In this document: in pieces, positions 3,132 to 8,694 of the stretch | Layout of the letters: each line of letters starts with the position of its first letter | Numbering within the stretch: position 1 is the first letter of the stretch | Assembly (NCBI GenBank): GCA_025350045.1 | Contig: JANXYM010000075.1 | Location: 1,039 to 65,038 of the forward strand | Length of the DNA stretch: 64,000 nt | From: Methanomicrobiales archaeon | Lineage (GTDB): Archaea > Halobacteriota > Methanomicrobia > Methanomicrobiales > Methanospirillaceae | Direction: 5' to 3' | The notes under the pieces: generated by a model | Told to the model about the DNA's origin: nothing | The model's database searches: none | The model's input: only the letters and a program-made list of their open reading frames with translations | Program-made: the position numbers and the translations under genes

Positions 3132-4580
3132 CTACGCCTCCTTCTTCTTAAGCGCTTCAACCAGCATCCGGTTCAGCTCGCCCGGGTCGGCCTTGCCCCG
3201 GGTCTTTTTCATGACATGGCCTACCAGGAAATTGAGCGCGCCGCCTTTTCCGGCAAAGTAATCCTCGAGCGCTTTTGGGTTCTCGGTGATTGCTTCATTG
3301 ATGGCAGCGGTTATGATCCCGGTATCGCCCGATGTTTTTGCAAGGTTGAGGCGCGACACAATAGCGGCGGGAGCTTCAGCGGGCTCATTTTTCATGTGCT
3401 GGTCGAGCATGATTCTCAGTACTTCGATTCCGCTCTTGTCGGTGATGGAGCCCTGCTTGAGGATATCTACCAGTTCCGTAAACTGTGCTGCATCCACACT
3501 GTCAAGGCTCATGCTGCGGTAATTCAGCTCCCCGATAAGGGTGTCGGCAATCCAGGTAGCGGCAAGGGTTGAGAGTCCTTGTGGGTCGGCGGCAACGATT
3601 TTTTCAAAGAAGTTTGCCAGTTTCAACTCACCGGTCAGGGTACGGGCATGGTTTAAGGAGCAGCCGTACTGCGCAACAAACCGCTCGCGGCGTGCATCGG
3701 GAAGTTCCGGCAATACAATGCCGGCTACCCAGGACTGCACGTGCAGGGGGCGGAGGTCCGGCTCGGGGAAGTAGCGGTAGTCGTGCTCCTGTTCCTTGGA
3801 ACGCGATGACTGCGTGATGCCGGTGGATTCGATGAAGTGCCGTGTCTCGCGCTCGATCCGCACGCCGCGCCGGATCAGGTTTTTCTGCCGGGTGACTTCG
3901 TAGGTGAGCGCTTTTTCCACTCCTTTATAGGAAGTGATATTCTTGACTTCCACCCGCTCGTTGCCCTTGATCGAGATGTTCGCATCCACCCGCAGCGATC
4001 CTTCCTTGTCGCTGTCAAAGACGCTGAGGTACTCGAGCGTGGCACGGAGTTTGTTCAAGAATTTCCGTGCCTCCTTGGGAGAACGCATATCCGGTTCGGA
4101 TACGATCTCGATCAACGGGATGCCGGCCCGGTTGTAGTCCACGAGCGAATACTTGCCCCGCTCGGCATTGCCCATATGGACGAGCCTGCCCGGGTCCTCT
4201 TCGACATGGATGCGGGTGAGCTGGATACGCCGCTCGCCGCCTTCATCGCTCTCGATCTCCAGGTAACCGCCTTCGGCAAGGGGCTTGTCGTACTGGGTGA
4301 TCTGGTAGGCTTTGTCAAGGTCCGGGTAGAAATAGTTCTTCCGGGAAAACTCGGATTCGTGGAGTACGGTGCAGTTGAGGGCCTTTGCCACTTTCATCGC
4401 ATACTCGATCGAACGCTTGTTGAGCACCGGCATTGCACCGGGAAGTCCGAGGCAGACCGGGCAGACGTGCGTGTTCGGCCCGTCATCCCGGTAATCGGTG
4501 GAGCAGCCGCAGAAGAGCTTGCTCTTTGTGTCCAGCTGGCAGTGCACTTCGAGCCCGACAATCACCTGGTCTTCTGCCAT
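3132..4580 (-). CDS. gatB: Asp-tRNA(Asn)/Glu-tRNA(Gln) amidotransferase subunit B
   Basis: 'VGLEVHCQL', 'RKNYFYPDL', 'DYNRAGIPLIEIV', 'DYRYFPEPDL'. Confidence 0.98.
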   Translation of the reverse strand: MAEDQVIVGLEVHCQLDTKSKLFCGCSTDYRDDGPNTHVCPVCLGLPGAMPVLNKRSIEYAMKVAKALNCTVLHESEFSRKNYFYPDLDKAYQITQYDKPLAEGGYLEIESDEGGERRIQLTRIHVEEDPGRLVHMGNAERGKYSLVDYNRAGIPLIEIVSEPDMRSPKEARKFLNKLRATLEYLSVFDSDKEGSLRVDANISIKGNERVEVKNITSYKGVEKALTYEVTRQKNLIRRGVRIERETRHFIESTGITQSSRSKEQEHDYRYFPEPDLRPLHVQSWVAGIVLPELPDARRERFVAQYGCSLNHARTLTGELKLANFFEKIVAADPQGLSTLAATWIADTLIGELNYRSMSLDSVDAAQFTELVDILKQGSITDKSGIEVLRIMLDQHMKNEPAEAPAAIVSRLNLAKTSGDTGIITAAINEAITENPKALEDYFAGKGGALNFLVGHVMKKTRGKADPGELNRMLVEALKKKEA

Positions 4581-7557: not shown

Positions 7558-7688
7558 AATCCGGTAGTACCCTGTTTTGTAATCTTTTTTTTGCATTTTT
7601 ACCTGCATATCCACGTACGAGATCCAGGTACCTCCTGCACGCATGGTATGCGATTCCTTTTTGCGTTATGCGATGAATATTATACCGC

Positions 7689-7729
7689 GCGAGGGTAGCC
7701 GAGCTCGGCCAACGGCGCTGGACTTAAGA
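7689..7729 (+). pseudogene. Orphan 5' half of a tRNA-Leu(UAA)
   Basis: GCGAGGG acceptor strand, GCC/GGC D-stem, CTGGA-CTTAAGA anticodon loop, then no 3' anticodon strand or T-arm; 34/41 nt identical to the 5' half of the downstream intact gene. Confidence 0.85.
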
Positions 7730-7762
7730 CCTCGTCGTGACAATCAGTATTAGAGTATATTT

Positions 7763-7847
7763 GCGAGGGTAGGAAAGCCCGGCCAACTCCGATGGACTTA
7801 AGATCCATTCCTGCAGAGGTTCATGCGTTCGAATCGCATCCCTCGCA
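7763..7847 (+). tRNA. tRNA-Leu(UAA)
   Basis: Acceptor GCGAGGG/CCCTCGC+A, D-stem GGA/TCC, anticodon stem ATGGA/TCCAT with loop CTTAAGA (TAA at 7799-7801), long variable arm, T-arm ATGCG-TTCGAAT-CGCAT. Confidence 0.95.
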
Positions 7848-7855
7848 TTTTTTTT
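7848..7855 (+). terminator. Oligo-T archaeal terminator after tRNA-Leu
   Basis: 8-nt T run immediately 3' of the tRNA. Confidence 0.6.
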
Positions 7856-7945
7856 GGTTTTTCATACACCCATCAGACCCGGTCGTTCTCACGAAATACC
7901 CGGCCTCCGAAAAAAAAAGAAAATAGAGACAAATTTTTCCTTTGT

Positions 7946-8470: not shown

Positions 8471-8694
8471 AGTGTTCGGAATAACTTCTGTTGATATAAG
8501 GGTTTTTGCTCCGGGTGACAAGCATTACTGCCTGCGGGGTACAAAATCAGGAAAATCTGATCATTTCGCACAGAAATTTACGTACCGCTCTCCCTTTGGT
8601 ATTAAAAAAACACTTCCTGTGGTGGAAAAAGCACACTGATATGAACAGTCGGTTTTACCGGTAAAGAAGGCGCGAACCGGTTCATAGGTTTCTT

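Follow-up and report, generated by a model that had tools for sequence, protein, structure and literature searches.

An orphan 5' half of tRNA-Leu(UAA) in a Methanoregula genome as the probable scar of a tRNA-replacing insertion

An orphan 5' half of a tRNA-Leu(UAA) gene lies 33 nt in front of a complete gene of the same isotype in this archaeal genome, and we consider it quite probably a scar, left by inserted DNA that broke the former resident gene in its anticodon loop and replaced its tRNA. Two alleles of the gene occur in the genus Methanoregula, a relative carries the complete split state, and the boundaries of a deletion are visible in the genome analysed here. The insertion would have been site-specific, and the imported tRNA, presumably read through a leader made of the orphan half, may have become essential.

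Results

The tRNA-Leu(UAA) locus

The stretch of DNA analysed (the window, 64,000 nucleotides, C37:1039-65038) comes from an archaeal MAG of 2.53 Mb in 121 contigs (G000), the assembly of which is 96% complete. On the forward strand, the orphan half occupies 7689-7729, reads GCGAGGGTAGCCGAGCTCGGCCAACGGCGCTGGACTTAAGA, and comprises the acceptor 5' strand, the D arm, the 5' strand of the anticodon stem and the anticodon loop. Its first base abuts the native promoter region of tRNA-Leu(UAA) (7650-7688, forward strand), in which a GCGATTCCTTTTTG block is followed by a GAATATTATA block. Downstream of the orphan come a spacer, X (7730-7762, forward strand, CCTCGTCGTGACAATCAGTATTAGAGTATATTT), and the complete tRNA-Leu(UAA), which was called by ARAGORN at 7762-7848, has mature coordinates 7763-7847 on the same strand, and is the only UAA isoacceptor gene in the 2.53-Mb assembly.

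The 5' part of this tRNA (7763-7803) reads GCGAGGGTAGGAAAGCCCGGCCAACTCCGATGGACTTAAGA and is identical to the orphan at 34 of 41 positions, the mismatches falling at positions 11, 12, 13, 17, 26, 27 and 30. Two D-stem pairs among these seven mismatches are compensatory, with GCC(G)/(C)GGC in the orphan and GGA/TCC in the gene, and the similarity ends exactly past CTTAAGA, at 7729, leaving a spacer of 33 nt. The match, the compensatory changes, the stop after the anticodon loop and the length of the gap had all been described in the original prediction and were recovered when the sequence was re-read.

Local alignment of the tRNA with its own 300-nt upstream flank gave z = 13.4 against 100 shuffles. 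When all tRNAs of the genome were considered, a comparable upstream partial copy of a 5' half was found only at tRNA-Leu(GAG), on another contig (z = 13.8); the remaining flank matches were neighbouring complete tRNA genes. A tandem pair of tRNA-Cys(GCA) genes, 56 nt apart, was also observed outside the window, on another contig of the same genome (C5:9113-9311).

Alleles of tRNA-Leu(UAA) in the genus

Comparison of tRNA-Leu(UAA) over 108 genomes of the genus Methanoregula distinguished two principal alleles. The gene at 7763 represents allele A, which is marked by GGA/TCC in the D stem, ATGGA/TCCAT in the anticodon stem and CCTGCAGAGG in the variable arm; copies 100% identical to that of the window are present in 12 further Methanoregula genomes. 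Allele B has the D stem GCCA/GGC, the anticodon stem CTGGA/TCCAG and the variable arm CCCGCAGGGG, and an intact, identical B gene is found in at least nine congeners (G001, G007, G010, G014, G023, G048, G063, G073 and G078). In all nine genomes, the intact B gene adjoins a conserved region of two blocks (GATTCTTTTTT, about 10 nt, AATACTATA), and these blocks stand in the same register before the intact B genes of G001, G078 and G023 and before A genes that have no leader; its conservation and position suggest that this region acts as a promoter.

The orphan is identical to allele B at 40 of 41 positions and lies behind the same promoter in the same register, so it comes from another functional allele. 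The proposal that it was not a decayed copy is thus borne out by the nine congeners in which B is intact. A third allele, B', is represented by an intact gene in G067, and G049 carries a 42/42 copy of it that is broken at the same point.

It is very improbable that the 5' half was duplicated in tandem from the adjacent gene or that the assembly joined A and B strains into a chimera. Both alleles are current in the genus and the MAG is split into 121 contigs, which would leave room for such an error, but the orphan copies allele B and not the adjacent gene, and the same junction and spacer recur in at least ten independent assemblies. An assembly chimera is also unlikely because the same arrangement is found in G122, G006, G095, G076 and two JGI metagenome contigs, with both displaced halves present in G122.

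The Rfam tRNA model gave scores of 51.9 bits for B, 49.3 for B', 53.3 for the gene of G019 and 56.9 for an outgroup. Searches with RF00005 returned no match, at E-value cutoffs of 1-10, to the A allele of the window (7763-7847) or to the identical genes of L003, L006, L007, L027 and L038, likely because the sequence filters drop its off-consensus D arm and T stem. For annotation this means that the Rfam tRNA model misses the working allele here even at permissive thresholds; ARAGORN finds it.

The complete split state in G122

The sole complete example of the split gene that was found is in G122 (L061, CAZPYV010000006.1). In this genome the promoter is followed by the B 5' half (41/41), a 38-nt spacer that begins CCTCGTCGTGATAATCAG, a complete A tRNA, 129 nt, an ORF of 342 aa, about 150 nt, and finally the B 3' half (52/52, positions 34-85). 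The insertion measures 1.43 kb and sits in the anticodon loop of the B gene. An 8-bp core, ACTTAAGA, marks both junctions, at the end of the B 5' half and again ahead of the B 3' half; its left copy closes the orphan in the window (7722-7729, forward strand), in agreement with the anticodon-loop breakpoint of the original prediction. No tRNA is formed at either junction, where CCTCGTCG comes after the left arm and GTGCGTGAT before the right arm: the insertion leaves the B gene unrebuilt and supplies a whole tRNA of the same isotype. The cargo ORF encodes a DUF4352/transglutaminase-like lipoprotein that is essentially unique within the genus. Comparison of the right arm of the insertion, Y, with eight references, as a decayed 5' half or other tRNA-like sequence, gave raw p values of 0.04-0.6 and was not significant.

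Integration from the 5' side, as carried out by pTN3-like integrases, would explain the order of parts differently, with the orphan as the host 5' half, the working gene as a hybrid of an element 5' part and a host 3' part, and the body of the element shrunk to 33 nt. Such 5'-half integration is documented for pTN3-like integrases of Thermococcales (PMC8371274), and it predicts the observed order of orphan 5' half, foreign DNA and working gene. The working gene, though, is no hybrid: its 3' half is A-type, with the partners TCCAT and CCTGCAGAGG that compensate the A 5' half and nothing of B type. A pTN3 element also brings its promoter, whereas no BRE/TATA-like block stands at a suitable distance in spacer X, and the perfect B 3' half of G122, 1.3 kb downstream of the A gene, would need a second independent event. 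We regard this mode of integration as unlikely here.

Deletion in the window genome

The locus in the window is syntenic on both sides with G001, in which B is intact, and with the outer flanks of the G122 insertion. Spacer X, which has no counterpart in intact-B genomes, would be the left end of the inserted DNA. On the other side of the tRNA, a T-run terminator (7848-7855) and residual insert DNA together occupy 7848-7911 (forward strand), ahead of the resumption of chromosomal synteny. Within this stretch, about 45 nt (7848 to approximately 7895) align with DNA 3' of the A tRNA inside the G122 insertion, and alignment of the chromosome to G001 and G122 resumes at approximately 7912, about 80 nt into their post-tRNA sequence. 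Because the flanks are syntenic, a remnant of the insert persists 3' of the tRNA, and the chromosome starts late, we infer that an insertion like that of G122 formerly stood here, and that a single later deletion removed its cargo together with the displaced 3' half of B and about 80 nt of chromosome.

A whole-genome BLAST search found no B-type 3' half (one starting TCCAG) anywhere in the 96%-complete assembly, and the direct repeat and complementary fragment at the other border, which are present in the relative G122, are absent from the window genome. The insert remnant and the chromosomal loss suggest that the deletion took this half. The original prediction had also considered that the orphan might be one half of a split tRNA. 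As a split or alternatively spliced tRNA, it would be a 5' exon that is joined in cis or trans to a 3' half to form a second tRNA-Leu(UAA). The fragment is almost undecayed, and its break in the anticodon loop is placed like those of archaeal introns and split tRNAs, but there is no B-type 3' half in the assembly for it to join, no bulge-helix-bulge links approximately 7728 to approximately 7802 or the downstream 3' half (motif count 13, versus 15.3 in shuffles), and the corresponding fragment is degenerate in most species. An exhaustive helix-bulge-helix-bulge-helix search of 7689-7847 for cis-splicing found no arrangement giving an 85-nt product, and we consider a split tRNA hardly credible at this locus.

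Distribution in Methanoregula

More than 25 species have a leader of about 70 nt, homologous to the 5' half plus spacer X, that separates the promoter from an A-type tRNA. In type-1 leaders the 5' half is B-like and X begins CCTCGTCGTGA; these occur in G000, G122, G095, G076, G006, G100/G088, G091 and G019, in the JGI metagenome contigs L098 and L099, and in the MAG records L100 and L104. Spacer X is kept beside the imported tRNA in G122, G095, G076, G006, G100, G091 and G019 and in these four metagenome and MAG records. Type-2 leaders (G005, G016, G021, G103, G050 and others) have an X that starts with TATCAG and a 5' half in various states of decay. Thirteen A-type genes, including those of G008, G002 and G011, have no leader.

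The contig L098, in a third promoter lineage, has a B half that matches at 41 of 41 positions; its promoter subtype is that of G007, G010 and G014, three genomes in which the B gene is intact. In a maximum-likelihood tree of the upstream asparagine-synthase-like protein, L098 is nested with these same three genomes (support 98/96), and the tree of this flank protein places the intact-B genome G001 among the insert-bearers. Because the tree interleaves insert-bearing and intact-B genomes, the insert-bearing state is polyphyletic. Either insertion at the same site has been repeated, or the unit of X and the A tRNA has been transferred by homologous recombination, for which the 5' half and the 3' part of the tRNA would serve as anchors; both routes would yield fresh B halves.

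Several other arrangements were observed at tRNA-Leu(UAA) genes of the genus. The locus L063 (G098:C3:850000-862000) holds three tandem units of leader plus tRNA-Leu(UAA), 1.7-2.1 kb apart, the second of which has its own promoter copy and a U33G change; small genes between the units encode secreted DUF4114 proteins whose tails are PEF-CTERM-like, and the locus accumulates cassettes. In L062 (G103:C11), positions 4470-4570 hold a decayed A-type tRNA-Leu copy that lacks the first 16 nt and lies 1.3 kb downstream of the working gene, with cargo genes of PEF-CTERM type nearby; its breakpoint is in the D loop, not the anticodon loop. In L070 (G049:C64), the region 3' of the A tRNA (8563-8639) consists of 56 nt homologous to the left end of an integrase element, NN, and a 21-nt orphan of the tRNA 3' end (TTCGAATCGCATCCCTCGCA) with a T-run, which looks like a second scar, of the 3'-end type, or an unassembled element at the same gene.

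Expression and structure of the leader

Spacer X contains no second copy of the promoter blocks at the right distance, and nowhere between the promoter and the tRNA do five or more T occur in succession; a run, TTTTTTTT, stands directly 3' of the tRNA. The orphan half and spacer are therefore probably transcribed as a 74-nt leader. Because the promoter abuts the orphan and the terminator lies only past the tRNA, a precursor of 159 nt would be expected, from which RNase P would cut the leader.

The orphan and spacer might alternatively have been retained as a selected 5' leader, a mini-structure or anti-acceptor that modulates folding or RNase P cleavage, its tRNA-like origin being secondary. 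Its retention in more than 25 species would fit such a role, as would the pattern of conservation over the 12 type-1 leaders, which peaks at the junction region GGCGCYGGACTTAAGACCTCGTYGTGA (0.96 in the anticodon-stem and loop part and 0.91 in the first 15 nt of X, compared with 0.84 in the D-arm part and 0.75 in the rest of X). This peak would also fit a recombination site or repeated re-creation of the junction. The pairing of GCGAGG with CCUCGU, predicted originally as part of a compact tRNA-like hairpin, is present in the minimum-free-energy fold of the leader, but this fold has no unusual stability: neither the leader (z = +0.45) nor the whole precursor (z = -0.9) is more stable than shuffles. 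The P1 helix is unchanged in nine of the 12 type-1 leaders and broken or shifted in the other three (G095, G076 and G006), with no clear double compensations; type-2 leaders (G005, G016, G021 and others) are decayed and have no visible common structure, and the thirteen leaderless A-type genes do without the sequence altogether. A functional leader as the explanation of the locus is, on this evidence, improbable, and a selected leader structure was rejected as it folds no better than shuffles and P1 has no convincing covariation. In the predicted precursor fold, GCGAGGG of the orphan competes with the true 5' strand for the 3' strand of the acceptor, possibly a cost and not a function.

Search for a recombinase or virus

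No match to PF00589 was found in the G122 insertion or near the window locus, and tblastn of the G081 integrase against the window genome, like inspection of the locus itself, returned no integrase. An integrase adjoining tRNA-Leu(UAA), which the original prediction had suggested looking for, is thus missing from this genome; the start of an integrase gene lies instead 3' of tRNA-Leu(GAG), on contig C94. There, tRNA-Leu(GAG) (C94:2582-2666) is preceded at -91 to -48 by a decayed Leu 5' half with anticodon arm, behind the native promoter region. In the segment C94:2491-2774, this tRNA is followed by about 100 nt that are approximately 98% identical to the left end of a 400-aa tyrosine integrase gene, including the region of its start codon, and the contig ends; the matching integrase is found beside tRNA-Leu genes in other Methanoregula. 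The tRNA-Leu(CAA) genes beside integrases of this family in G068 and G010 also have 5' orphans.

Tyrosine integrases of this family, 406 aa long, are common in the genus directly 3' of tRNA-Gln, -Glu, -Gly, -Arg and -Leu. One member, the only integrase found beside an A-type tRNA-Leu(UAA), lies 3' of a gene with a decayed leader (G081:C50, the overlap identical to G061:C34), and the att repeat of its element is a 13/14 match, no better than chance. A scan of 12-20 kb at six integrase-adjacent tRNAs for partial copies revealed only a 16-nt repeat of the 3' end, at tRNA-Gly. Because this repeat makes the family look like a classical 3'-end integrator, its tie to the 5' orphans is circumstantial. 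When the integrases of L087, L088, L082, L092 and L097 were compared with L067, they were 83-96% identical to one another, yet they lie directly 3' of different tRNA genes, Gln-UUG, Glu-CUC and Leu-UAA; either such integrases change their target readily, or an element takes the neighbouring tRNA along with it. No contig in IMG/VR carried the junction or the A allele.

Discussion

The sequence of events that these comparisons suggest begins with foreign DNA entering the anticodon loop of a resident B gene at the core ACTTAAGA. Within the inserted DNA, 33-38 nt from its left end, there would have been a complete tRNA-Leu(UAA) of allele A, and a later deletion would have left the promoter, the B 5' half, spacer X, the A tRNA and a short remnant of the insert. 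The insertion was presumably site-specific, probably catalysed by a recombinase of the tyrosine-integrase type acting on the anticodon arm, since the same breakpoint occurs in different resident alleles and an 8-bp repeat of the anticodon loop flanks the insertion. Tyrosine integrases that target tRNA genes classically have their overlap region in this loop (PMC8371274). The A tRNA would now be read from the old promoter through the orphan half, with RNase P freeing the 74-nt leader, and the scar would have been kept since the imported tRNA turned essential, as its single copy suggests. Of the origins first proposed for the fragment, the comparative data from G122 and the intact-B relatives back the att-site scar, or tRNA replacement by a vanished element. 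The adjoining tRNA had been taken as the intact gene; intact it is, but that it is itself an imported copy, in an arrangement found across the genus, had not been foreseen.

The closest known system is the tRNA-dependent lysogeny of actinobacteriophages (Fionnbharth/subcluster K4 and cluster L; Guerrero-Bustamante and Hatfull 2024, PMC10865867). In both cases the attachment site overlaps a single-copy tRNA gene that is essential in the phage hosts (PMC10865867) and, to judge from its single copy, probably also here; the common core is very short, about 10 bp in the phages and 8 bp in G122; and the host tRNA is not rebuilt, an incoming complete tRNA of the same isotype taking its place. Unlike the phage system, the archaeal locus is a relic with which no associated integrase or phage genes were found, and 33-38 nt separate the core from the replacement tRNA, which apparently uses the host promoter by read-through of the orphan. 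The 5' half stays at the promoter as a leader, and the cargo in G122 is a single lipoprotein gene. Among the listed papers that use the term, no archaeal tRNA-dependent lysogeny is apparent by title or abstract.

Displaced 5' fragments have precedents. PMC8371274 describes recombination by pTN3-like integrases in the 5' portion of tRNA genes (Cossu et al. 2017), PMC6563490 refers to other elements that target the 5' part (Zhao and Williams 2002), and both describe displaced 5' fragments as rarer than 3' fragments. Like the pTN3-type loci, ours has a displaced 5' fragment with foreign DNA between orphan and working gene; those elements, however, contribute a 5' half and a promoter to a rebuilt hybrid gene, whereas here a whole tRNA is supplied and G122 keeps a separate 3' orphan. 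Partial tRNA copies left by integration are commonplace (van der Gulik et al. 2023, PMC9897764), and the orphan resembles ordinary displaced fragments (Williams 2002; Islander, PMC4383910; PMC9897764) in marking the border of acquired DNA and in its breakpoint in the anticodon loop. Ordinary fragments are 3' parts that lie kilobases from a rebuilt gene; this one is a 5' half, 33 nt before an imported gene that is not a hybrid, and the element has been lost. The scar is therefore of a known type, in a tRNA-replacing form that is uncommon and is seen across Methanoregula.

More tentatively, Methanoregula may harbour small mobile cassettes that hit the anticodon loop of the single tRNA-Leu(UAA), destroy the gene, and supply their own copy through the host promoter, a generalisation that we hold to be possible rather than probable. 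If it were true, the cassette family would be an archaeal counterpart of tRNA-dependent lysogeny, the tRNA of the cassette would become indispensable, so that the spacer-tRNA unit outlives the rest of the element and spreads between species, and the traces at tRNA-Leu(GAG) and tRNA-Leu(CAA) beside integrase genes would reflect the same process.

For the tracing of such insertions, the junction GGACTTAAGA|CCTCGTCGTGA offers a marker, and orphan tRNA halves found directly 5' of tRNA genes should be annotated as insertion scars. The locus suggests that horizontal acquisition of another allele can displace an essential single-copy tRNA gene of an archaeon altogether, with the front half of the old gene left in place as a probable leader, and it would extend the logic of tRNA-dependent lysogeny, so far drawn from bacteriophages, to a lineage of methanogens.
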